The notes: generated by a model not told the origin, from the letters alone. Positions 1-16,975 are shown, numbered from the stretch's first letter. The stretch: 17,203 nucleotides of DNA from Candidatus Thorarchaeota archaeon (GCA_048882045.1 JBHLRZ010000049.1:1-17203), one strand, 5' to 3'. Translations and numbers: made by a program.

Positions 1-207
1 AATACACCAGGCACAATTGACAGTGGATATCGAGGAGAGGTCAAGACCATCATGATAAACCACAATGATGAGGTGTTCAAGATAACAAAGGGCATGCGAA
101 TCAGTCAGCTAGCGATCCGACCCGTACCTGATGTTGAGTTTGTAGAGGTAGAAGATCTCTCGGACACAGAACGTGGGGAAGAAGGATTTGGTAGCACAGG
201 GAGATAG
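1..207 (+). CDS. dut: dUTP diphosphatase (trimeric dUTPase), C-terminal part; 5' end lies outside the window
   Basis: Frame 1 translated by hand: NTPGTIDSGYRGEVKTIMINHNDEVFKITKGMRISQLAIRPVPDVEFVEVEDLSDTERGEEGFGSTGR*. It contains motif 3 (GTIDSGYRGE), motif 4 (RISQL) and motif 5 (RGxxGFGSTG). TAG is at 205-207. Not in the supplied ORF track. Confidence 0.96.
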   Translation, partial: NTPGTIDSGYRGEVKTIMINHNDEVFKITKGMRISQLAIRPVPDVEFVEVEDLSDTERGEEGFGSTGR

Positions 208-341
208 AGGCGCAATCCCATCGAAGTTGGTTGTGACATATTCAGTAAGCAGGCTTATCTTGTTTGGTAACAAGTAGTCTTTAAGTTTCACGAGGGAGCA
301 GGTCTTGCAGTCGACTCCAACAACATAGATTCCAAGAGTCG

Positions 342-695
342 ATGCATCATAGATGGATAAGGAGCCAAGGACCAGTGTCAGGGGAGTCAAGTTATCCGGA
401 ATTCAGCCTGGATGATGTGTATACTGGCGAACCTAAGGAAAAGAGCACTGGGTGGAAATGGTGTGTCGGGTTTATGATGGTCTTCATTGTTCTCTTTGTT
501 CTCTTTTTGTCGCTTCCAGAAGAACTGCGAACAGCTGCAGAATTGGGCTTCCAAATTGTGTCCGCCTTTTTTTCCTTATTCACGCTATTTTACATAGTTT
601 ACTTGCTCTACCCAGCTAGACAAAAGAACTCTGAGATTCCAGATTCGGAGTCAAACAGAAATGATAATTCGCCGTCTGTGTCGCAATGTTTTTAA
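342..695 (+). CDS. Hypothetical small membrane protein (2 predicted TM helices)
   Basis: 117-aa ORF with two hydrophobic stretches (WCVGFMMVFIVLFVLFLSL; FQIVSAFFSLFTLFYIVYLLY). It is co-oriented with dut and the tRNA. The start codon is uncertain. Confidence 0.6.
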   Translation: MHHRWIRSQGPVSGESSYPEFSLDDVYTGEPKEKSTGWKWCVGFMMVFIVLFVLFLSLPEELRTAAELGFQIVSAFFSLFTLFYIVYLLYPARQKNSEIPDSESNRNDNSPSVSQCF

Positions 696-696
696 T
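689..696 (+). promoter_or_regulatory. Possible TATA box of the tRNA gene
   Basis: TTTTTAAT lies about 27-34 nt upstream of the mature tRNA 5' end, the spacing expected for an archaeal TATA box. Confidence 0.35.
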
Positions 697-722
697 CAGC
701 AGCAAGGGAGGAAGACCTCGAT

Positions 723-828
723 GGGCCGGTGGTCTAGCCCGGCTAATCTGTCATTTTGAATGGCAGAGTCGACTGATACTGCATTGACAGTGCAGTGGTC
801 ACGAGTTCAAATCTCGTCCGGCCCACCA
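723..828 (+). tRNA. tRNA-Val(GAC) with a non-canonical intron at about position 21/22; CCA encoded
   Basis: Acceptor stem GGGCCGG(723-729)/CCGGCCC(818-824) followed by A-CCA. Anticodon arm CTGCA-TTGACAG-TGCAG with GAC at 786-788. T-arm ACGAG-TTCAAAT-CTCGT. Removing 746-773 gives a normal D-arm (GGTCTAGCCCGGCTATGAT) and a 78-nt mature tRNA. Confidence 0.95.
746..773 (+). other. 28-nt tRNA intron with a bulge-helix-bulge/loop splice motif
   Basis: Central 4-bp helix CGGC/GTCG, 3-nt bulges TAA and ACT, and an intron hairpin TCTGTCATT-TTG-AATGGCAGA. Cleavage after the second nt of each bulge gives exactly the canonical D-loop. Confidence 0.85.
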
Positions 829-829
829 T

Positions 830-3601
830 CTATTTCTGTTTCAAAATCTTTGTCAGCTTAGACCATCCAATCCCCAGCTTATCCAGTGCCCACTGAGCAA
901 TGTTGTGGCAATCATGACAAACTAGAGCCCATTCTTCGGGGTTCAATTTTTGCAGGTTCTTCTTTCGATTTATCATTGCAGGATCATGTGTCTGTCCATC
1001 CTTTCTATGAAGAATCATTGGAACATCTGCAGAGTCGCAATTGCAGAGTGAGCATGTGTCTCCGAATAGTGCCTTCCTCAATTCCTTTTTAGTGAGGTTT
1101 GAATCCATCTTCTTAGCTTGTTTTGAAAGAGGTGCACTCTCGTCTGGAAGGTCTAGAACTCCTTTAGGTTTGACCGATTCCTTGGTGCGTGATTCAAGAA
1201 GTGACTCAATCTTCGCCCAATCATATCCATAGACATTCATGAGCAGATGTGCTCCCAGATGGCATCTATCACATAGAGGAGCCCATTCTTCGGGGTTCAA
1301 TGACTTGAGCTTCTTCAAAGACCGGAAAAGGTTTCTGTCATGTTCGGTCCCATCTTTTCTGTGTAGATGTAGACTCTTCTTTGATTCATTTTCAGTGTGA
1401 CATGCATAGCATTTATTCCCGAATATCTCGACACGAGTTTCTTTGAGCTTCATACGCCTATTTCTCTGATATTGTCTTCTCTCTTCGTCGATGTCTGTCT
1501 TTACTTTCGTTCTCTGTCTCTCTCGAGATTCCCACCCCTGATCATAGAATAATTTCTGGATGGTTTGTGAATGTACACCTAAAATCTCACCAATTTCCGA
1601 GTGAGAGAATCCTTCAACATAGTACAGGAGATAAACCCAATCAGGATCCAACTGTTTTCTAGTTGAGCGAGTCCTTTGATATGCCCAGTTATTCTTCTCG
1701 AAGGTTCGACGAACAGTCTTCATACTTACTCCCAAGATGTCGCATATCATCTCGAAGGAATATCCCTCCTGGAAATACAGCCTGCCAATCTCTTCAGCCT
1801 GTGTCTTGGATTTCTTTGGTCCAATCACTTTCCGAATCGTGGGCATGTCAAGTCCTGAGTACTCGGCTATCTGGAAGAAAGTCATCCCCTCCTCATGATG
1901 TAGCCTGCGAATCTCATCATCACTCAGTTTCTGTCTCTCTCTCTGTATTCGCATCTCCCAACCGTGCTTCCTGAACACTCCTCTGAGTATCTTGATTGTT
2001 AGGTCGAGGTCTGAGGCAATCTCTTGGAATGTCTGTCCCTCAGAATAGTACCTATGATGAATCTCTGCATCGCGGAGTGCCTTTCTCACCTGGTTCCTAG
2101 AGAGCCCTGTCTTCTTCGCAATCTCCCTCTCAGACAAGTTCTCCAATAGACGAAGCCTGACCACCTCCTCAAGAGGACCCTCCAGTTCGTTTGAGCTCTC
2201 GAATTCTTCGACCCGAGCCTCTTCTGCCTTCTCTACCACGCTTGACCATAGACTCTCCACCTCCTCTGCAAAGCTCCTGTCCTCAGAAACACCTTTCTCT
2301 CGGACTATCTGTTTGAACCGGTCTCGCTCCTCCTCTGAGAGCTCAGCAAAGAGGTTCCTGAGCTTTCTTCGTAACCTCTGTTCGTCGGACTCGTAATCTG
2401 ACAGTATCTTGTAGACTCGCTGCATCTCACCCGTTAGAGGGTCCTGAACATAGTCGTATTCATCGTCCATGTACTCATCTAACATATCTTGGACCTTCTT
2501 TACAAAGTCCTCCAGATCTTCTAGGACCTCTTCCTCCTCCAAGACCTCTTCGTCTGAAATCTCACCTTCTAGAACATCATCAGCCTCTTGTACTTCAGTA
2601 TCTTCCAACTCAGACTCTGCAGACTCAACAATTCTCTGGATTTCGTCACTCGCATCCTGAAACTCTGGTTCTTTAGCCTGTTCAATATCAGAGTCTAAAG
2701 CGGGTTCAGAAACATCCTCGACCTCAGCTGTCTGAGGCTCATCCTCATTGGCTTCAGATTCGGAAGCGGTTTCCATTGAATGGTTTGAGCTGTCCTCGAC
2801 ACTCTCAGGCCCCTCTCTCTTCGACTCGATTGAGTTGGTCATGTCTGACCTGTCATCATCAGCACTTGTTTCAGGCTTCGAAAAGTCTGATTCTGTTTCA
2901 GTGGATTTATGGTTGAGAGTGCCATCAGGAGATGTTTCATCTGTTTCTGTATGTTCCTGTCTGGTGAAACGATTTGTGAACTTGTCATTCACAGCATCTG
3001 TCGTTGCTTCTGGCTCTTCAACACTCCCTTCAGACTCATTGACATCTTGAAACGATTCTTCAGCCTCTTCTGAAGCTTCTTGTTCAGTTTCGGTCTGAGC
3101 CTCAGCCCCTCCTGAACCTCCCTTCGTTTCCAGAGCGTAGGCCATCCCGTTCCCAGCATCCTCATAGGACTCGCTCGATTCTGTCATGTCAGAGGATGAG
3201 CCTGTGTCACTGTCCTGCTCTTCGGATTCAGTTTCTTTGTAAGAGGGTTCCTCAAGTTGACGGTCCATGTCATTGACAAATCGGTCGTGAAGATCATCCC
3301 TGACCTCATCCAAGTCATGACCGAGGTCGTCCTCCATCGACCCCTCAGCATTTTCTTCGTTCTCCATCGAGTCAAGCTCTCTGGATGCTTCATCAGCCAA
3401 GTCTTTGGCATCCGCCTCTGTTTCATCTAGCTCCCGCGAAGCCTCGTCCGCATATCTTTCTGCTTCCTCCTCCCGCTCTAGATCTTTGACAGCCTCGTCC
3501 TCTGGGGACTCTTCGCTCTCATCGGTCTCTCGATATTCCTGCTCTTCGCCCTCTTCTGAGTCCGAATACCTCTCTCTGTCGTCTGAACGTTCATACGACA
3601 A
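830..3601 (-). CDS. 923-aa protein: long acidic disordered N-terminus, 5 tandem HTH repeats, 2 tandem Zn-binding HNH-like endonuclease domains
   Basis: The first ~460 aa are extremely E/D/S-rich. Five repeats resemble EIxRLYxxEGxSFxEIAxxLGxSxxTIRKxF (about 1530-2170). Two domains read FGxxCxxC...LHRKDGxxHD...LNPEEWAxxCxxCH (about 1245-1425 and 895-1065). The TTG start overlaps the upstream ATPase stop, and the TAG stop is 1 nt from the tRNA CCA. Confidence 0.85.
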   Translation of the reverse strand: MSYERSDDRERYSDSEEGEEQEYRETDESEESPEDEAVKDLEREEEAERYADEASRELDETEADAKDLADEASRELDSMENEENAEGSMEDDLGHDLDEVRDDLHDRFVNDMDRQLEEPSYKETESEEQDSDTGSSSDMTESSESYEDAGNGMAYALETKGGSGGAEAQTETEQEASEEAEESFQDVNESEGSVEEPEATTDAVNDKFTNRFTRQEHTETDETSPDGTLNHKSTETESDFSKPETSADDDRSDMTNSIESKREGPESVEDSSNHSMETASESEANEDEPQTAEVEDVSEPALDSDIEQAKEPEFQDASDEIQRIVESAESELEDTEVQEADDVLEGEISDEEVLEEEEVLEDLEDFVKKVQDMLDEYMDDEYDYVQDPLTGEMQRVYKILSDYESDEQRLRRKLRNLFAELSEEERDRFKQIVREKGVSEDRSFAEEVESLWSSVVEKAEEARVEEFESSNELEGPLEEVVRLRLLENLSEREIAKKTGLSRNQVRKALRDAEIHHRYYSEGQTFQEIASDLDLTIKILRGVFRKHGWEMRIQRERQKLSDDEIRRLHHEEGMTFFQIAEYSGLDMPTIRKVIGPKKSKTQAEEIGRLYFQEGYSFEMICDILGVSMKTVRRTFEKNNWAYQRTRSTRKQLDPDWVYLLYYVEGFSHSEIGEILGVHSQTIQKLFYDQGWESRERQRTKVKTDIDEERRQYQRNRRMKLKETRVEIFGNKCYACHTENESKKSLHLHRKDGTEHDRNLFRSLKKLKSLNPEEWAPLCDRCHLGAHLLMNVYGYDWAKIESLLESRTKESVKPKGVLDLPDESAPLSKQAKKMDSNLTKKELRKALFGDTCSLCNCDSADVPMILHRKDGQTHDPAMINRKKNLQKLNPEEWALVCHDCHNIAQWALDKLGIGWSKLTKILKQK
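925..1301. repeat. Perfect 23-bp direct repeat GAGCCCATTCTTCGGGGTTCAAT at 925-947 and 1279-1301
   Basis: Read directly from the sequence. It encodes LNPEEWA in both HNH domains. Confidence 0.9.
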
Positions 3602-6600
3602 CTTCAGACCCCTGACTCCTGATTTCTATGTTGACTGACTCGACAATTGTGTTCCAGAGTTCTTCATTCTCTGGAGTTCCCAGGATTGTCTTTGCATGCT
3701 GTAGCATCTTTGTTGCGACCAACTCTAGGTTATGATTATCACCGGCAGCTTTCTTTGAGAACACACGAATCATTCGAGCAATAGGAGTCGTATCTCCATT
3801 CACAGCCTTTCTCAAACGGTCATAGTACCGACTTGCGAACTGTTCTGTCCTGACGATTGCCTTGATGAAGAGGTCAAGTTCGTCCTCAGTCTCTGGTCTT
3901 CTGAAACTCGATTTCTCCTCAACCCGCTTCTTTGCTAGTTCATTAAATTCCTCAATGGAAGACTTCACGATGGAACGAATCTCTTTTCCAAGTGCATCTT
4001 CATCGACCGTGACTGACTTGATTCTGTGCGAAACTTCATTGTATAGACGCTGATAGATCAGGTCAATGTTCTCTGGGAGGATGTCATCTCTCCATAGATA
4101 ACCATCCCACTCCTCAACGATGTCTTCTTTGACTCTTGCTTCCTGCGACAGTATCCAGAGAATGTACTGACAATAGAAGAGAAGACCAGGTCCTTTTTCA
4201 GCAAGCTGTTTTGCTATCCCGCGAATGATGACCCCTCCTATGACAGGATTCCCACTCTTTGTGGCATCTATCATGGCTGAGAGTGCTCCATTGAAGGTCG
4301 AGTGGTTGAGAATCAGGTGTAGTTTGAACACATCGAGCATGTCGATTGATACGAGTCTACCACCCAGTTCATTGAGTTTTGGAGTGCTCATGGCAAGTGA
4401 TGATTTTCTCTGAAAGTGCGGATTCTCTTCAAATACGGATTGCATGCGCTGTCTGATGTCCTCGTCTGTCACAGGTGTGTCGTCAGAAAGCCGTGGATGT
4501 TTCTGGAAGGGATTGTCAATTCGGACTCTGACTGGTTTACTTGCACTTGCTGTCCTGACCACAGCTTCTCCCACTGGGAGGGCCCCCATCATCCTGATTT
4601 GCTCATCTGTGCAGTTCATCAGGTCTCCAAGGAGTTGGCGTTCACTCTTTGGTCCAGTGGCATGTACTATATTAGTGAGAGCCATTGTAATGGCTTCGTT
4701 GTTCAAGTGCAGTGGCTTTTGGGTTGCTATACTGAATCCAAGTCCGGCACTACGAGACTCCCTCATTGAAACGGTGATTGTGTCGATAGCCACATTCTGC
4801 GCAGCATGATCCTCATCCTCTTTGAGTCCCTTTCCACCAGAGAGAAACCGATGGGCCTCCTCCAAGACTACATAGAACTTCAGGCCCTTCTCGTGCATAG
4901 AATCCAACTTCTTCTTCGCTTCAAAGTGGCGACCCAGATTAGACACCAACCAATAGACGAAGAATGCACGTTCCTCCTTAGACAGCTTGTCGAGAAGAAT
5001 CACACTCGGTCTTGATACCAACTCTTCGATTGAGATTCCTGATATCGTGCCAAACACACGACTGAGCGCACCCTTGCATATCGTGCGGAGTCGTCCATAG
5101 AGGGCACCGCGAAAGTCTTCGTTTCCTCTGCTACTGTACTGGATGTCGTCTTCCATCTGTGGTAATGTTTCTAAGAAGTCTGACAATAGAATGGGAATCC
5201 CTCTAGTGTTAGTGTCGCGGTTCCAACCCAACCGTTCGAATGTGAGCTCAATCAGGGCCTCAAGATACTCCTTGATCATCCCATGAGTGGGCATCATAGC
5301 CACGAATGCAGCCTTTGTGTCGTTGATTATGGAGCTAACATGAACACCTCTCCCATAGGCTGTGAATGAGAACCTCAGGGGAGCTACTGTTTCATCTCCA
5401 AGTGTGAAGATCCAAAGTGAATCAAGAACTCTTGTTAATTTCACATACTCCTCGCTCTTAGAGGCAAGCAGAACGAGGAAGTTGATCTTTCTCTCTTGGA
5501 GTTGGAGGAGGATGTTGAGCTGAGTTGTCGTTTTTCCTCTTCCAGTATCACCAGTGAGCCCAGTATGAGATGCTAAATCGATAACTGGAATCCCAAAGTC
5601 CGAAATCTCTCTTCCTGTATCATCAACAATCTTGCCTATTCTGATAACATCTCCATCAATCTTAGAACCAGTTCTAGGATGAAGATTCGCTGGATTGGAA
5701 CGGAAAGCGGCGTGGTCTGAAACGGAGATACCGACATCACACTTTGGGAGGGGGAGAAAGACACATGCCTCTTCAAGCGACATTATTGTAGACTTGCCAA
5801 TAGGGATTCCCTTGAGGAGCTTTGGGACCTGTTGCGGCTTGACCTTCTTGGTCATTGTTCTGAAGTCATTTCTCTTATCTGCTGGAATCAGGTTCCCTCT
5901 TAGAACTGTCATCAATCTTCCAGCCATGTTTTCAGCAATCTTCTTTGTAAGCTCCCAGCTGATGATAGTCACTTCGGTATCGCATACATGACTGTGGCTC
6001 AGACGCTTGATCTTCTTCTGTATTGACTCTGCTTCCTGAGCGGCCCGGGAATCTACCTTGGTCACTGACTGTTGTATCTCTCCTGAGAAGAGTGTGGACT
6101 GTGGACTCGATACGGTCATCTGAGCTTGTGCCATCGCCTGCCGATACTTGTTTTCCAATGATTTCCTAGCCCGATCACTCGGTGTTTTTGGAGTGAATGA
6201 GATCTGGATGATGGCATCTGACATACCCTGCAAGACCTCGGCAACAGCAGTCATTAGGTCCCCGTTCTGCTGCGGGTCTTCTATCGTGAGAGGTTCACCA
6301 ACCAAATGAGAAAGAACATAGACCATCCTAGAGTCGGTTGAAGGCCCATTGAATCTGGAGTGGGTCTTGAACTTGAAATCGGGTAGTGTTGCCTTGATGG
6401 CATCTGTGAGTGTCTGGATGTTATTTGGAAGCTGTATCAGTTCCGTAGTCCAGGTGATATAGAGGATGCGTGTATTGTTATCGACACGCTGATACCTTAG
6501 AGCTCCAGGGATATTGGAGAGTGTCAAAGCGCGTAGTATATTGTAAAATGGCTTATGAGGTCGGTCCTCATTCTTATCCACAAAATACTCCTCAGGAAAC

Positions 6601-6680
6601 TGTGTGATTTCTACAGCTCCAACGAAGAACTCTCTTCCAGATGTGAGCAGTTTCCCGATTTCAGCCAAGATTTCGGACAC
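3591..6680 (-). CDS. HerA/FtsK/VirB4-superfamily (DUF87-like) P-loop ATPase, 1029 aa
   Basis: Walker A H-x-G-x-T-GDTGRGKT (about 5529-5552), Walker B YVVLEEAHRF (about 4845-4874), and the downstream ESRSAGLGFSIATQKP motif typical of HerA/VirB4. GGAGGA SD precedes the GTG start. Confidence 0.9.
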   Translation of the reverse strand: MSEILAEIGKLLTSGREFFVGAVEITQFPEEYFVDKNEDRPHKPFYNILRALTLSNIPGALRYQRVDNNTRILYITWTTELIQLPNNIQTLTDAIKATLPDFKFKTHSRFNGPSTDSRMVYVLSHLVGEPLTIEDPQQNGDLMTAVAEVLQGMSDAIIQISFTPKTPSDRARKSLENKYRQAMAQAQMTVSSPQSTLFSGEIQQSVTKVDSRAAQEAESIQKKIKRLSHSHVCDTEVTIISWELTKKIAENMAGRLMTVLRGNLIPADKRNDFRTMTKKVKPQQVPKLLKGIPIGKSTIMSLEEACVFLPLPKCDVGISVSDHAAFRSNPANLHPRTGSKIDGDVIRIGKIVDDTGREISDFGIPVIDLASHTGLTGDTGRGKTTTQLNILLQLQERKINFLVLLASKSEEYVKLTRVLDSLWIFTLGDETVAPLRFSFTAYGRGVHVSSIINDTKAAFVAMMPTHGMIKEYLEALIELTFERLGWNRDTNTRGIPILLSDFLETLPQMEDDIQYSSRGNEDFRGALYGRLRTICKGALSRVFGTISGISIEELVSRPSVILLDKLSKEERAFFVYWLVSNLGRHFEAKKKLDSMHEKGLKFYVVLEEAHRFLSGGKGLKEDEDHAAQNVAIDTITVSMRESRSAGLGFSIATQKPLHLNNEAITMALTNIVHATGPKSERQLLGDLMNCTDEQIRMMGALPVGEAVVRTASASKPVRVRIDNPFQKHPRLSDDTPVTDEDIRQRMQSVFEENPHFQRKSSLAMSTPKLNELGGRLVSIDMLDVFKLHLILNHSTFNGALSAMIDATKSGNPVIGGVIIRGIAKQLAEKGPGLLFYCQYILWILSQEARVKEDIVEEWDGYLWRDDILPENIDLIYQRLYNEVSHRIKSVTVDEDALGKEIRSIVKSSIEEFNELAKKRVEEKSSFRRPETEDELDLFIKAIVRTEQFASRYYDRLRKAVNGDTTPIARMIRVFSKKAAGDNHNLELVATKMLQHAKTILGTPENEELWNTIVESVNIEIRSQGSEVVV

Positions 6681-6896
6681 TCATTCTCCTCCGTTTGATC
6701 TTGGTCTTGTTGCCAGGGCACGATTGATTGGGTCCCGACAATGGGAGCAAGCATGCAAACTCCACCACACGCCTGTTCCACACTTCCAACCTACTTTTCC
6801 ACTCATATCGAGGTATGGCCCCTCCCATCGTCGGGGATTCTTGGGAAGTGAGTGTGAGGTCCTCCTTGGTGGAAGGATACCTCTGGGGGGTTTCAC
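6681..6896 (-). CDS. Small hypothetical protein with a Cys/His cluster, possibly the first gene of the ATPase-HNH operon
   Basis: The 71-aa ORF's TGA directly abuts the ATPase GTG start (TGA-GTG). It contains WKC...HACSHC. Competing ORFs overlap it. Confidence 0.4.
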   Translation of the reverse strand: MKPPRGILPPRRTSHSLPKNPRRWEGPYLDMSGKVGWKCGTGVWWSLHACSHCRDPINRALATRPRSNGGE

Positions 6897-7239
6897 ATCC
6901 TTTTACATCTGGAGATACCATCATCCTTTCACTCCCTACTGCGATCTACCATCACACAAGATTGCCCAAAGCCCTTTACTCAAGGGGCAATAGAATGTAT
7001 GGGGGCTCTAGTGTTGGAAGGGATAGTCCAAAATCCTCTGTTTTTCTTGTTCTCCGGGTGTGACTCTTAATTGCAGATGAAATTGGCCTGAGACTGGTCT
7101 TCACCTCATCGCGTATGCCGCATTTTGCACAAGGACTAAAGGTTCAAAGTGATATATCAAACGCCACTCTACATGATTGCGGGATTATTGGGAATGCTAC
7201 GTGAGCTTGTTATGAAGCTAGATTTCCTTCCAGATTTAT

Positions 7240-7764
7240 ATGCCTCCAAGAGTAAAATTTTCCATGTCAATGAAGAAGCAAGCCCCAGATGTTGACAAAC
7301 TTGCAAAATCAGTTGACGATAATTTTAGTCGGCCAATGTATGTGCTATATTTCCTATGGGCAACTGGATTCTTCACAATAATCGGGATTACAGTATATTT
7401 AGTCACGTTAATGGTAGCTATAGGATTCCAGACAGGTGCACTCACCGTAGATAGTACAATATCTAGCACAGTTGCTATTTTAGCTCTAATGATTAGTATC
7501 ACACAATATAGTGAGAAATCTAACAAAGTTGAAGATGATGATTTTGCTATAGATTGTATCAAAAAGAATCTCAAGATTCTAACTAAGAAGAATCCCAATC
7601 TGACTGAGGATGAGAAACTGATTCTAAGTGGATTAATCAAGATGAAATCAAGAAATGAAAAGGCCAACATACAGGATGTCGCAAAATATCTATCCACAAG
7701 TACTGATGATTGGATTGCTTTTCTTTATGGACTGGGTGATGGATCCTCCCTTTTGAAGGATTAA
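7240..7764 (+). CDS. Hypothetical membrane protein (2 TM helices plus a small soluble C-terminal domain)
   Basis: 174-aa ORF with two hydrophobic segments. Its stop overlaps that of the convergent 633-aa ORF (TTAA at 7761-7764). Confidence 0.7.
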   Translation: MPPRVKFSMSMKKQAPDVDKLAKSVDDNFSRPMYVLYFLWATGFFTIIGITVYLVTLMVAIGFQTGALTVDSTISSTVAILALMISITQYSEKSNKVEDDDFAIDCIKKNLKILTKKNPNLTEDEKLILSGLIKMKSRNEKANIQDVAKYLSTSTDDWIAFLYGLGDGSSLLKD

Positions 7765-16502: not shown

Positions 16503-16547
16503 TTGACAGTGCGGTGGTCACGTGTTCAAATCACGTCCGGCCCACCA
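16503..16547 (+). repeat. R5: copy of the tRNA-Val 3' half (att-like)
   Basis: TTGACAGTGCGGTGGTCACGTGTTCAAATCACGTCCGGCCCACCA matches tRNA 784-828 at 42/45 positions. Confidence 0.95.
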
Positions 16548-16573
16548 TTTCTTCTCGGCAGTCAGAGAGATAG

Positions 16574-16613
16574 TTTATACTCTTTCATGTGCACTTCCCA
16601 ACTGACGGGGTGA
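16574..16613 (+). promoter_or_regulatory. TATA box and SD of the Zn-ribbon gene
   Basis: TTTATA at 16574-16579, and GGGGTGA (archaeal-type SD) at 16607-16613, 7 nt before the TTG start. Confidence 0.55.
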
Positions 16614-16620
16614 TTTTCGG

Positions 16621-16827
16621 TTGGATGAATTGAAGAAGGTCTGTACATCTTGTGGAAGTGAGAAACTAGCCGGGCCATTTAGATCAAAAACGATTGTTTG
16701 GTTTGGAATGTTTTCCCATGCAGCGAGCGATGCTTATGTTTGCCTTGTCTGTGGACATGTGGAGGACTTTTTCACACAAGTGGATATAGAAAAAATCCGA
16801 AGAAAATTCGATAAGAACCAAGGATAA
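16621..16827 (+). CDS. Small zinc-ribbon protein
   Basis: 68 aa with CTSCGS...CLVCGHVE and a good SD and TATA box. It is the only gene between R5 and R6. Confidence 0.8.
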   Translation: MDELKKVCTSCGSEKLAGPFRSKTIVWFGMFSHAASDAYVCLVCGHVEDFFTQVDIEKIRRKFDKNQG

Positions 16828-16897
16828 CAGCTCAGTAGAAAACCGATACTGAGAACGCAGATCTGTGTAGTCTTGGTCAGATACATCTCGAATGTAC

Positions 16898-16941
16898 TTG
16901 ACAGTACGGGGGCATGTGTTCAAATCACGTCCGGTTCACCA
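16898..16941 (+). repeat. R6: degenerate copy of the tRNA-Val 3' half
   Basis: TTGACAGTACGGGGGCATGTGTTCAAATCACGTCCGGTTCACCA differs from R5 by 5 substitutions and 1 deletion. Confidence 0.88.
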
Positions 16942-16975
16942 TCCACTTCTGCTTCTATTAGACAAAGGAGTCTTG

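Follow-up and report, generated by a model that had tools for sequence, protein, structure and literature searches.

Transfer RNA genes are classic landing pads of mobile DNA, and such insertions nearly always depend on a tyrosine or serine recombinase. The Asgard archaea are the closest prokaryotic relatives of eukaryotes. In archaea, tandem integration and the loss of integrases have both been documented (PMC8371274, PMC6563490), and in phages the homing endonuclease SegB cuts within tRNA genes, where it sets off tandem rearrangements (PMC13096335), while the boundaries of genetic exchange are marked by free-standing endonuclease genes (PMC10448857). This report concerns a locus of a Candidatus Thorarchaeota archaeon in which an intact, intron-bearing tRNA-Val(GAC) is followed by six partial copies on the same strand, R1-R6, all within a 17,203-nt stretch that makes up one entire contig (C49, GCA_048882045.1 JBHLRZ010000049.1) and is called the window throughout. 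With a probability that we put at roughly 0.5, and on the strength of sequence comparison, this array would represent the stacked scars of serial invasions of tRNA-Val(GAC) by elements that are marked by a nuclease with an array of HTH repeats and two HNH modules. Cassette-like arrays recur at this one tRNA gene across an Asgard archaeal family in which no tyrosine or serine recombinase was found to account for them; instead, a nuclease family tracks tRNA identity.

The tRNA-Val gene and its partial copies

The initial annotation had described one intact tRNA-Val(GAC) and six same-orientation copies of its 3′ half, delimiting units of about 8.9, 1.4, 1.8, 0.7, 2.7 and 0.35 kb, and both the copies and the intervals are borne out (Table 1). 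A 23-nt pattern that spans the T-loop through the acceptor end gives, with up to three mismatches, six plus-strand matches in the window and none in 200 shuffles, R2 being detected via its anticodon-side piece and not via this pattern. Measured from start to start, the spacings from the tRNA through R6 are 8959, 1442, 1868, 708, 2742 and 394 nt. The description of the copies as 3′ halves holds for the four that are full, but R2 and R4 are truncated pieces; likewise, the reported start at the motif TTGACAG applies to R2, R3, R5 and R6, with R1 starting at GACAG, but not to R4, which has only the part from the T-loop to the CCA end. The 22 nt upstream of R3 are similar to the 22 nt upstream of R6. 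In a genome-wide scan, orphan T-arm/acceptor ends are essentially limited to C49, and the fragments are thus clustered behind the tRNA, as had been claimed, and not scattered. Since each repeat is shorter than the 77-nt overlap of the assembly and has its own variants, and since comparable arrays are present in 11 independent assemblies, an assembly artefact is unlikely. The contig ends 260 nt past R6, where a 77-nt overlap joins it to contig C82, on which the conserved right flank of the array follows the ~180-aa ORF that is shared by the two contigs and is homologous to an array unit of the relative G044. On the left side, there is a 77-nt overlap with contig C68, whose adjoining ORF is a Pfam dUTPase match (5e-18).

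Table 1. Features of the window, in order of position
Feature	Position	Strand	Basis or remark
dut (dUTPase) 3′ end, conserved left flank	1..207	+	rest on C68; Pfam match of C68 ORF
117-aa membrane ORF 5′ of tRNA	342..695	+	ORF list; homologue in C91; Pfam matches weak only
Intact tRNA-Val(GAC), native promoter	723..828	+	5′ end and D-loop insertion of resident type
28-nt D-loop insertion, non-canonical intron	746..773	+	comparison with intron-less orthologues L025, L027, L035
923-aa HTH-array and double-HNH protein	830..3601	-	profile, alignment and structure-model evidence
1029-aa HerA/FtsK-superfamily ATPase	3591..6680	-	NCBIfam CedD and HerA; PADLOC HerA and mad8
174-aa predicted membrane protein	7240..7764	+	weak SLATT-like match only
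633-aa protein	7761..9662	-	no match in Pfam, NCBIfam, PHROG, PADLOC
R1, tRNA-Val 3′-half fragment	9745..9786	+	begins GACAG; 97.6% identity to tRNA
379-aa cargo gene	10049..11188	+	weak Ig-like Big_7 match; unit GC 39%
R2, first 27 nt from anticodon loop only	11185..11211	+	begins TTGACAG
490-aa cargo gene	11208..12680	-	no family match
R3, full 3′-half fragment	13053..13098	+	begins TTGACAG
200-aa uracil-DNA glycosylase superfamily cargo gene, family-4-like	13161..13763	+	Pfam UDG 9e-11; NCBIfam
R4, truncated, T-loop-to-CCA piece only	13782..13806	+	
HNH-family gene remnant, final 16 codons	13807..13854	-	repeat comparison and translated sequence
848-aa cargo gene, patchy accessory	13844..16390	-	homologue also in C91
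R5, full 3′-half fragment	16503..16548	+	begins TTGACAG
68-aa zinc-ribbon gene, own TATA-like box	16621..16827	+	350-bp unit
R6, 3′-half fragment, most degenerate; distal array end within window	16897..16942	+	begins TTGACAG
C-terminal part of ~180-aa ORF starting on C82	16976..17203	-	weak MerB-like match

Removal of the intron from the intact gene, modelled at tRNA positions 24-52 as a 29-nt window, yields a normal cloverleaf upon folding. ARAGORN finds no tRNA in the window with its default settings, and the tRNA-Gln that it reports with introns allowed is a mis-call, the gene being tRNA-Val(GAC). Rfam gives only a partial match to the intact gene (24.8 bits) and, at a relaxed threshold, no matches to the short fragments. 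The anticodon stem of the intact tRNA, CTGCA/TGCAG, differs from that of all six fragments. Four of the six have the resident-type stem strand, intact in three cases and with a single mismatch in the other, whereas R6 has two mismatches in that strand and R4 does not extend to the stem.

Repeats that are direct, on one strand and, except for R2, extend to the CCA end are what classical gene capture would leave behind. By that account, integrative plasmids or viruses with a tyrosine integrase inserted serially into tRNA-Val, with crossover in either the anticodon loop or the T-loop, and every insertion displaced the previous 3′ half; subsequent deletion removed the integrases along with most of the other genes, so that only fossil att sites and a small number of captured genes persist, with the HNH gene as unrelated cargo. 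Tandem integration and integrase loss are known in archaea (PMC8371274, PMC6563490), the truncated and degenerate copies resemble fossils, and GC is atypically low in units 2-4. The searches for the enzyme argue otherwise and agree with the earlier claim that no integrase lies in or near the array. No tyrosine recombinase (PF00589, PF16795) was found in this 93%-complete genome, and no integrase occurs on the tRNA-Val contigs of 86 relatives; integrases are present in 29 of the 86 genomes of the archaeal family, never on that contig. Among more than 30 unit ORFs from 12 genomes there is no integrase or recognizable remnant of one, although small or highly diverged remnants could escape such a search. 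The presumed att sequence, i.e., the 3′ half, is absent from IMG/VR in exact scans, and one metagenome scan for it returned four ordinary intact tRNA-Val genes and nothing else. Together with the arrangements seen in relatives (see below), these results make serial capture by integrases an unlikely, if still serious, explanation.

Array genes and the HNH nuclease family

The genes of the array occur on both strands, mostly as single and unrelated genes per unit, with no common promoter and no uniform orientation. In this respect, the locus is the tRNA-anchored hotspot that the initial annotation had proposed, one at which unrelated genes accumulate, mostly singly and in both orientations, and whose content varies between related genomes and between the two haplotypes of the assembly. 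What that account of the units had overlooked is the gene that abuts the tRNA. Its stop codon is 2 nt from the CCA end of tRNA-Val, and its 923-aa product has an acidic N-domain (residues ~1-450), five HTH repeats (~455-700) and two HNH modules in tandem (~745-805 and ~845-910). In an alignment of 21 sequences, the Cys and His residues of the HNH motifs do not vary in either module. Pfam HNH matches to the protein are weak only, and a profile search against PDB sequences matched the HTH repeats only; however, the best fold matches to a structure model of the HNH part (pLDDT 89.7) are nearly all HNH nucleases. The top structural neighbours, namely Cap5, McrA, T5 SciA, Cas9-HNH and PacI, align over 64-72 residues with an rmsd of 3.1-4.2 Å and Z scores of 3.5-4.8, Foldseek E-values being >0.1 throughout. 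When the whole 335-aa model is used for the fold search, HTH matches dominate, and nuclease neighbours appear only with the separately folded HNH part. The 923-aa protein, with its predicted HNH nuclease fold, is the only mobility-type gene product tied to the array.

Of the 86 genomes that represent the archaeal family, 34 have matches to this HNH family, up to 13 in a single genome, and a sample of 158 genomes from the phylum's other families yielded none. A tRNA gene adjoins ~15 of the 21 copies examined, and several copies have, on their far side, a partial copy of the adjoining tRNA, in some cases inverted or consisting of an intron-less 5′ piece; inverted 5′ fragments beside HNH genes are an outcome that integrase-mediated gene capture cannot yield. 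The HNH clades sort by the type of neighbouring tRNA, near-identical copies are found in different genera, and the presence of the HNH gene correlates with variant anticodon-stem or intron alleles of the tRNA. Remnants of HNH genes adjoin tRNA-Val in G034 and G041, at R4 and in contig C91, which is a second haplotype in the same assembly. The remnant at R4 and its tRNA end are 84% identical, across 73 nt, to positions 805-877. The 48 nt that are shared on the 3′ sides of the 923-aa and 848-aa genes are explained as this remnant of an older HNH gene; homology between the two proteins, as suggested by the matching 3′ flanks, was ruled out by BLASTP. Most units, in the window as well as in relatives, show no HNH trace, an observation that sits against an array driven by the HNH nuclease.

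Among the other genes, that for the 1029-aa ATPase and the start of the HNH gene overlap, and co-location in relatives indicates that the ATPase recurs in a two-gene module with proteins that have the acidic N-domain. PADLOC calls no defence system in the array, its only matches (HerA-type and mad8) both being to the ATPase. The 633-aa protein has no recombinase signature in Pfam, NCBIfam, PHROG or PADLOC and may be an alpha-solenoid, its Atlas model being poor and its HEAT/ARM-like neighbours, at TM < 0.4, not usable. Homologues of the 848-aa protein are present in 9 of the 86 genomes, where they are located elsewhere in the chromosome with no flanking tRNA pieces.

The 350-bp zinc-ribbon unit is common to this array and those of three other species, with 82-88% identity across the four compared with ~70% for the flanking core genes, and its neighbours differ in every array. 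That such a unit spreads without an enzyme gene of its own is a further observation against an HNH-driven array. The same unit bears on the initial proposal of an integron-like platform, whereby each unit with its tRNA half would be an independent cassette that leaves as a circle and re-enters at the tRNA or any half-site by means of a recombinase acting in trans. The units suit this proposal in being too small for autonomy, with one gene each and at least one promoter-like box, as does the variation of array content by species and haplotype, yet repeat-anchored homologous recombination explains the sharing of the zinc-ribbon unit equally well. No candidate for a trans-acting recombinase emerged, neither PF00589 nor PF16795 being found in the genome or on the tRNA-Val contigs of the 86 relatives. 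R2 lacks one end, R4 the opposite end, and R6 is degenerate; the sites can thus not all be functional, and the left ends of the fragments in relatives are scattered. With gene orientation mixed as well, the idea that the tRNA halves serve as attC-like sites is not upheld, and a platform of independent cassettes is very improbable.

The locus in relatives and a possible route to the array

At the dut/tRNA-Val locus, 11 or more further species of this Thorarchaeota family have comparable arrays, always between the same conserved flanks, and, as the initial annotation had anticipated, the content of the arrays varies. The site is empty in the closed relative G057, and the last repeat abuts the conserved flank; both facts also fit gene capture by integrases, as does the clustering of fragment starts at position 32 and in the T-loop, which are dyad-symmetric sublocations used by tyrosine integrases. 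In three relatives (G053:C22, G066:C53 and G037:C145), an intact HNH gene lies between the 5′ and 3′ fragments of a split resident tRNA-Val. In this fresh state, a short spacer separates the resident 5′ fragment from a complete replacement tRNA-Val, which is of a different allele; next come the antisense HNH gene, whose stop abuts or overlaps the 3′ end of the replacement tRNA, optional cargo (HerA-type ATPase, others) and, finally, the resident 3′ fragment. The 5′ fragment is of the resident allele and located 20-55 nt upstream of the complete tRNA-Val, which scores 50 bits in Rfam and whose acceptor stem and T-arm co-vary. The 3′ fragment beyond the HNH gene in G053, where the unit consists of the tRNA and the HNH gene and nothing else, is 24 nt long and starts from the T-loop, whereas that in G066 begins just past the anticodon. 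At the junctions in all three relatives, 13-23 nt of the target are missing, which could be later erosion and not an insertion signature. A split resident tRNA accompanied by a replacement tRNA is not the geometry expected of attP x attB recombination, and gene capture cannot yield such a 5′ fragment together with a complete replacement tRNA. In the window and in G030, no 5′ fragment is present and it is the tRNA beside the HNH gene that has the native promoter, an arrangement that is compatible with attL/attR geometry; these two loci also fit ordinary 3′-half replacement, which is an observation against an HNH-driven array.

The second haplotype, C91, is without 13 kb of the array, and the counterpart of R4 in it is the 3′ end of an intact tRNA. 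C49 and C91 differ by a divergent block that runs from directly after dut to R4; both flanks, including the dut 3′ end, are 93% identical, compared with 70% for the tRNA-containing stretch inside the block. This contrast would be expected of a recombination hotspot at which homologous recombination with diverged relatives reshuffles the region, the fragments stem from old unrelated events, and selfish free-standing HNH endonucleases settle beside tRNA genes and do not build the array. The association of free-standing endonuclease genes with exchange boundaries in phages (PMC10448857) and the many units devoid of an HNH trace fit the same scenario. Left unexplained by it are the split resident and replacement tRNAs exactly where HNH genes are intact, the tracking of tRNA identity by HNH clades, and the partial tRNA copies beyond single HNH genes, and we consider a mere hotspot improbable.

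For serial invasion by HNH-bearing elements, the following route can be envisaged. The HTH array would recognize the DNA of the tRNA gene, in which the pair of HNH modules would make a break, either within the anticodon loop or within the T-loop. Repair of the break from an element-bearing copy would then swap the essential tRNA for an allele protected from the nuclease by a different anticodon stem or by a 37/38 intron. Recombination between the 5′ fragment and the nearby replacement tRNA would yield one chimeric tRNA at the native promoter, the state seen in the window, with the distal 3′ half as the sole scar. Repeated invasions, decay of the older HNH genes (as in the remnant at R4) and lasting cargo would produce single-gene units between 3′ halves, and the scars may double as homology anchors for the exchange of units between lineages. 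Features of a homing element are present, in that the gene interrupts its putative target and that occupied and empty alleles coexist (the three relatives, G057, C49/C91), but the HNH gene could also be a passenger homing into an already unstable site.

A broader proposal, for which our confidence falls somewhat short of even, is that this lineage-specific HTH-array/double-HNH family represents a new Asgard homing element, which would break an essential tRNA gene, install an immune replacement tRNA along with cargo, and build a gene-capture array by repeated invasions. Half-tRNA scars would anchor the exchange of single genes between species, giving an integron-like outcome via a nuclease and not an integrase. 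If the nuclease does drive insertion, this would be a gene-capture route, undescribed in the literature searched, in the prokaryotes most closely related to eukaryotes. It would also offer a concrete selective reason for the diversity of tRNA alleles and for tRNA introns, i.e., protection from cleavage, and would point to programmable-looking HTH-array nucleases with long DNA targets.

Comparison with known systems

In layout, the locus resembles tandem genomic islands at tRNA genes and the gene capture described for archaea (She et al. 2001; PMC8371274; Thaumarchaeota survey, PMC6563490), with which it shares direct, same-strand repeats of the 3′ part of a tRNA behind an intact tRNA, tRNA-proximal growth, decay of mobility genes with persistence of cargo, and empty sites in relatives. 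Unlike those islands, the array has yielded no tyrosine integrase or remnant, its units are as small as 0.35 kb, and the fresh insertions comprise a replacement tRNA and both resident halves, not attL/attR hybrids. Streptococcal CIME/ICE accretion (PMC5704250) likewise involves integrase-less units with att-type repeats that share one chromosomal site, in tandem, with a larger element; there, however, the att sites belong to a known tyrosine integrase of the neighbouring ICE, an enzyme for which no equivalent was found here. Integrons and integrase-less attC clusters resemble the array in the ordered succession of mostly single, promoter-poor or self-promoted genes with a recurring site between them and in varying content. 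They differ in that no IntI was found in the window or the 93%-complete genome, that the sites are co-linear tRNA halves, two of them truncated, and not attC hairpins (imperfect palindromes), and that gene orientation is mixed with no common promoter, the zinc-ribbon unit having its own TATA-like box. Finally, as with SegB of T4/T6 (PMC13096335; overview, PMC2988022), a nuclease gene sits beside tRNA genes, is patchy among close relatives and is adjoined by rearranged or duplicated tRNA pieces; SegB targets the DNA of tRNA genes, as is proposed, from sequence, for the HNH protein. Yet SegB is a GIY-YIG enzyme of phages, whereas the present family joins a double HNH to an HTH array and is encoded in the chromosomes of Asgard cells, and, in relatives, the element is found within a split single-copy tRNA gene, together with a replacement tRNA, cargo and arrays of half-tRNA scars.

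The tRNA gene, its partial copies and the alternative haplotype

The window makes up all of contig C49 of a draft genome of 3.6 Mb (93 contigs, 44 % GC). The intact tRNA-Val(GAC) followed by six same-strand partial copies (R1-R6), as described in the initial annotation, is real, since the copies could each be placed and the 23-nt core common to them gave 0 chance matches in 200 shuffles. The clustering of the fragments also held, in that orphan T-arm/acceptor ends in a genome-wide scan are essentially confined to this contig. The tRNA was not detected by default ARAGORN on the window and gave only a partial match in Rfam, because of the 28-nt insertion in its D-loop.

Features of the tRNA-Val locus and of its alternative haplotype
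Feature	Position	Strand	Remarks
tRNA-Val(GAC), intact	723-828	+	cloverleaf fold once insertion is taken out
D-loop insertion, 28 nt	746-773	+	from comparison with intron-less orthologues, where it is missing
923-aa ORF (HNH gene)	830-3601	-	stop 2 nt from the CCA end of the tRNA
HerA-type ATPase + acidic N-domain	3591-6680 and 830-2180		multi-copy two-gene module across the family
R1	9745-9786	+	same strand as tRNA
R2	11185-11211	+	first 27 nt of 3' half only
R3	13053-13098	+	
R4	13782-13806	+	T-loop to CCA only
R5	16503-16548	+	
R6	16897-16942	+	
C91 (contig of the same genome, G000; locus L011)	1-2648		second haplotype; additional gene (inosine-uridine nucleoside hydrolase) between dut and tRNA

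The first unit is an 8.9-kb block of four long ORFs, and those after it hold, in order, a 379-aa gene, a 490-aa gene, a UDG-family gene, an 848-aa gene and a 68-aa zinc-ribbon gene. Both strands are used, and the description of the later units as mostly single genes in either orientation thus agrees with their ORF content. Units 2-4 are ~39 % GC, under the 5th percentile of the genome, and homologues of the 848-aa gene lie elsewhere in other genomes, with tRNA pieces absent nearby. Overlaps of 77 nt at contig ends join C68, which carries dut and its upstream genes, to either C49 or the 2.6-kb C91, and join C49 to C82, on which the conserved right flank lies (several small genes besides two rubrerythrin-like ones). 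The locus has its second haplotype in C91, with a dut that is 93 % identical and a tRNA-Val in which a canonical 37/38 intron is present in addition to a D-loop insertion; the stretch including this tRNA (C91 1387-2068) is ~70 % identical to C49 215-877. Immediately behind the C91 tRNA comes the stretch found after R4 in C49 (93.7 % identity), and 830-13781 is therefore present in one haplotype and missing from the other.

Elsewhere in the genome, contig C12 has an inverted tRNA 3'-end fragment (29756-29778, minus strand) ~230 nt upstream of a tRNA-Val(CAC) (30006-30142) that contains two insertions and has no HNH gene at its locus. With introns allowed, ARAGORN called two tRNAs on contig C17 (10166-10771 and 13035-14180), with introns of 514 and 1048 nt; both calls are probably artefactual, but insertions into tRNA genes could also account for them.

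Arrays and split tRNA genes in related genomes

In a set of 86 genomes from the family, tRNA-Val(GAC) is followed on its own strand by between one and three 3' fragments, spaced by 0.35-3.5 kb, in at least 11 further species, the left and right flanks being the same every time; the closed genome G057 has the site without an insert. The units are again single unrelated genes, encoding, for example, a SAM methyltransferase, TPR protein, amidohydrolase, GNAT, S9 peptidase, solute-binding protein, CAAX protease, aminotransferase, GH4 enzyme and others. A class of 3' fragments with a ~30-nt hairpin-like insertion in the variable region (loci L024 ~2860-2932, L028 ~2095-2164 and L029 ~3215-3289, in oriented coordinates) is common to G031, G037 and G041, and partly to G049, the genes around it differing from one genome to the next. 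Four species share the 350-bp zinc-ribbon unit, beside different neighbours, and its DNA identity between species is 82-88 % versus ~70 % for flanking core genes, which points to an exchange of small units between lineages. In the window, a conserved TATA-like box and leader (16549-16620) lie straight after R5, ahead of the zinc-ribbon gene.

The most common left end of the fragments is the first base of the anticodon loop; a second class begins at the T-loop, and some pieces are shorter. These modal boundaries coincide with the loops in which integrases classically cross over (PMC8371274). Searches with PF00589 and PF16795 gave no matches in the window's own genome, PF00589 genes are present in only 29 of the 86 relatives and never on a contig bearing a tRNA-Val copy, no integrase is found among the unit genes of the relatives' arrays, and the att sequence (the tRNA 3' half) was not found in IMG/VR. 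The claim that the units are devoid of an integrase is thereby borne out.

In three relatives (contigs G053:C22, G066:C53 and G037:C145), an intact HNH gene occupies the same dut/tRNA-Val locus together with a complete tRNA-Val of another allele, i.e., a replacement that has the acceptor GGGTCGG paired to a fitting 3' strand, a T-arm unlike the resident one and an intron at 37/38, and that scores 50 bits in Rfam; 20-55 nt upstream of it is a 5' piece of the resident allele (acceptor GGGCCGG). In G053, the resident 3' fragment (24 nt from the T-loop) lies beyond the HNH gene, which is all that separates it from the complete tRNA, whereas in G066 the 3' piece begins just after the anticodon, 8.4 kb off, past an HNH plus HerA-ATPase block like that of the window. 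Given this order of 5' fragment, whole tRNA and distal 3' fragment, the element lies within the resident tRNA gene and brings a whole substitute tRNA with it. At the junctions of these loci, 13-23 nt of the target are missing, and a conservative attP x attB recombination would spare these and yield hybrid tRNAs. In G047, G049 and G065, the HNH gene has a 5' fragment upstream, in some cases from an intron-less copy, and a full tRNA downstream, in either orientation, and in G038 a 22-nt 3' fragment sits just past a lone HNH gene, next to a tRNA-Thr; such layouts cannot simply be made by an integrase. G053:C22 also has two tRNA-Gly-like orphan 3' ends, 1.1 kb apart (28142 and 29224), that may be another small scar array.

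The HTH plus double-HNH protein

Although the initial annotation rightly saw no integrase in the array, it overlooked the HNH-type gene that abuts the tRNA. In the 923-aa protein, an acidic N-terminal half is followed by five HTH repeats and then by two tandem modules of the pattern CxxC...HRKDG...CxxCH, and the Cys and His residues are invariant in both modules across 21 family members. The Pfam HNH model matches the modules weakly; a separately folded 202-aa region reached a pLDDT of 89.7, and its nearest structural neighbours (Z 3.5-4.8 over 64-72 residues, with a Foldseek list also made) are almost all HNH nucleases, including Cap5, McrA, T5 SciA, Cas9-HNH, PacI and IscB. The HNH assignment of the two modules is well supported, and the nuclease activity is a predicted one.

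Matches to the family occur in 34 of the 86 genomes, at up to 13 per genome, and none was found in sampled genomes of 26 other families of the phylum. About 15 of the 21 copies examined adjoin a tRNA gene, often with the stop codon inside, or a few bases from, the tRNA 3' end on the opposite strand. Clade membership follows the kind of tRNA nearby (Val-GAC, Val-CAC, Val-UAC, Ser-GGA and others), which is a pattern among related, non-independent rows and not a statistical test. Near-identical proteins in different genera (G038:C151 versus G083:C46 and G038:C259 versus G085:C21, branch lengths 0.03-0.08) indicate a recent horizontal transfer of the element. The ATPase's partner protein, 1100-1900 aa, is variable in its C-terminal part, with the HTH/HNH module at the end of only some, and related loci lie on G027:C109, G053:C67, G053:C8 and G059:C1. 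Since the module recurs with other C-terminal domains, the 923-aa protein looks like the partner's acidic domain fused to a tRNA-homing module.

Origin of the array

The window tRNA has a 5' end of the resident type, and its D-loop insertion is homologous to that in the 5' fragment of G053; its anticodon stem (CTGCA/TGCAG) is like that of the replacement alleles. The resident-type strand TGCGG is kept in R1, R3 and R5, and with one mismatch in R2 and two in R6, while R4 is too short to reach the stem. This is as a deletion between a 5' fragment and a replacement tRNA would leave it, with the present chimeric-type tRNA as the product. Together with the final 16 codons of an earlier HNH gene, which come after R4, and HNH remnants after tRNA-Val in G034 and G041, the stem pattern suggests that the array represents the scars of repeated invasions by HNH elements. 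The newest would be 830-9744 beside the tRNA, with the HNH gene, the HerA-type ATPase and two further genes, and of the older units only the cargo would be left.

A lineage-specific HTH plus double-HNH nuclease element is the best-supported driver, at a probability of about 0.5. Because most units have no HNH trace, the modal boundaries are of the integrase type and the zinc-ribbon unit moves without an enzyme gene of its own, the array, in part or as a whole, may instead stem from an integrase since lost, from a recombinase in trans or from simple homologous recombination with the repeats as anchors. Of the integron-like platform first proposed, with tRNA halves in the role of attC sites, the outcome stands, i.e., gene accretion at a fixed site; the membership and mechanism do not. 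A literature search found no archaeal HNH element described as splitting a tRNA gene while bringing along its replacement. A precedent is offered by SegB of the T-even phages, a homing endonuclease whose cuts fall inside tRNA genes and which causes tandem rearrangements at these sites (PMC13096335).
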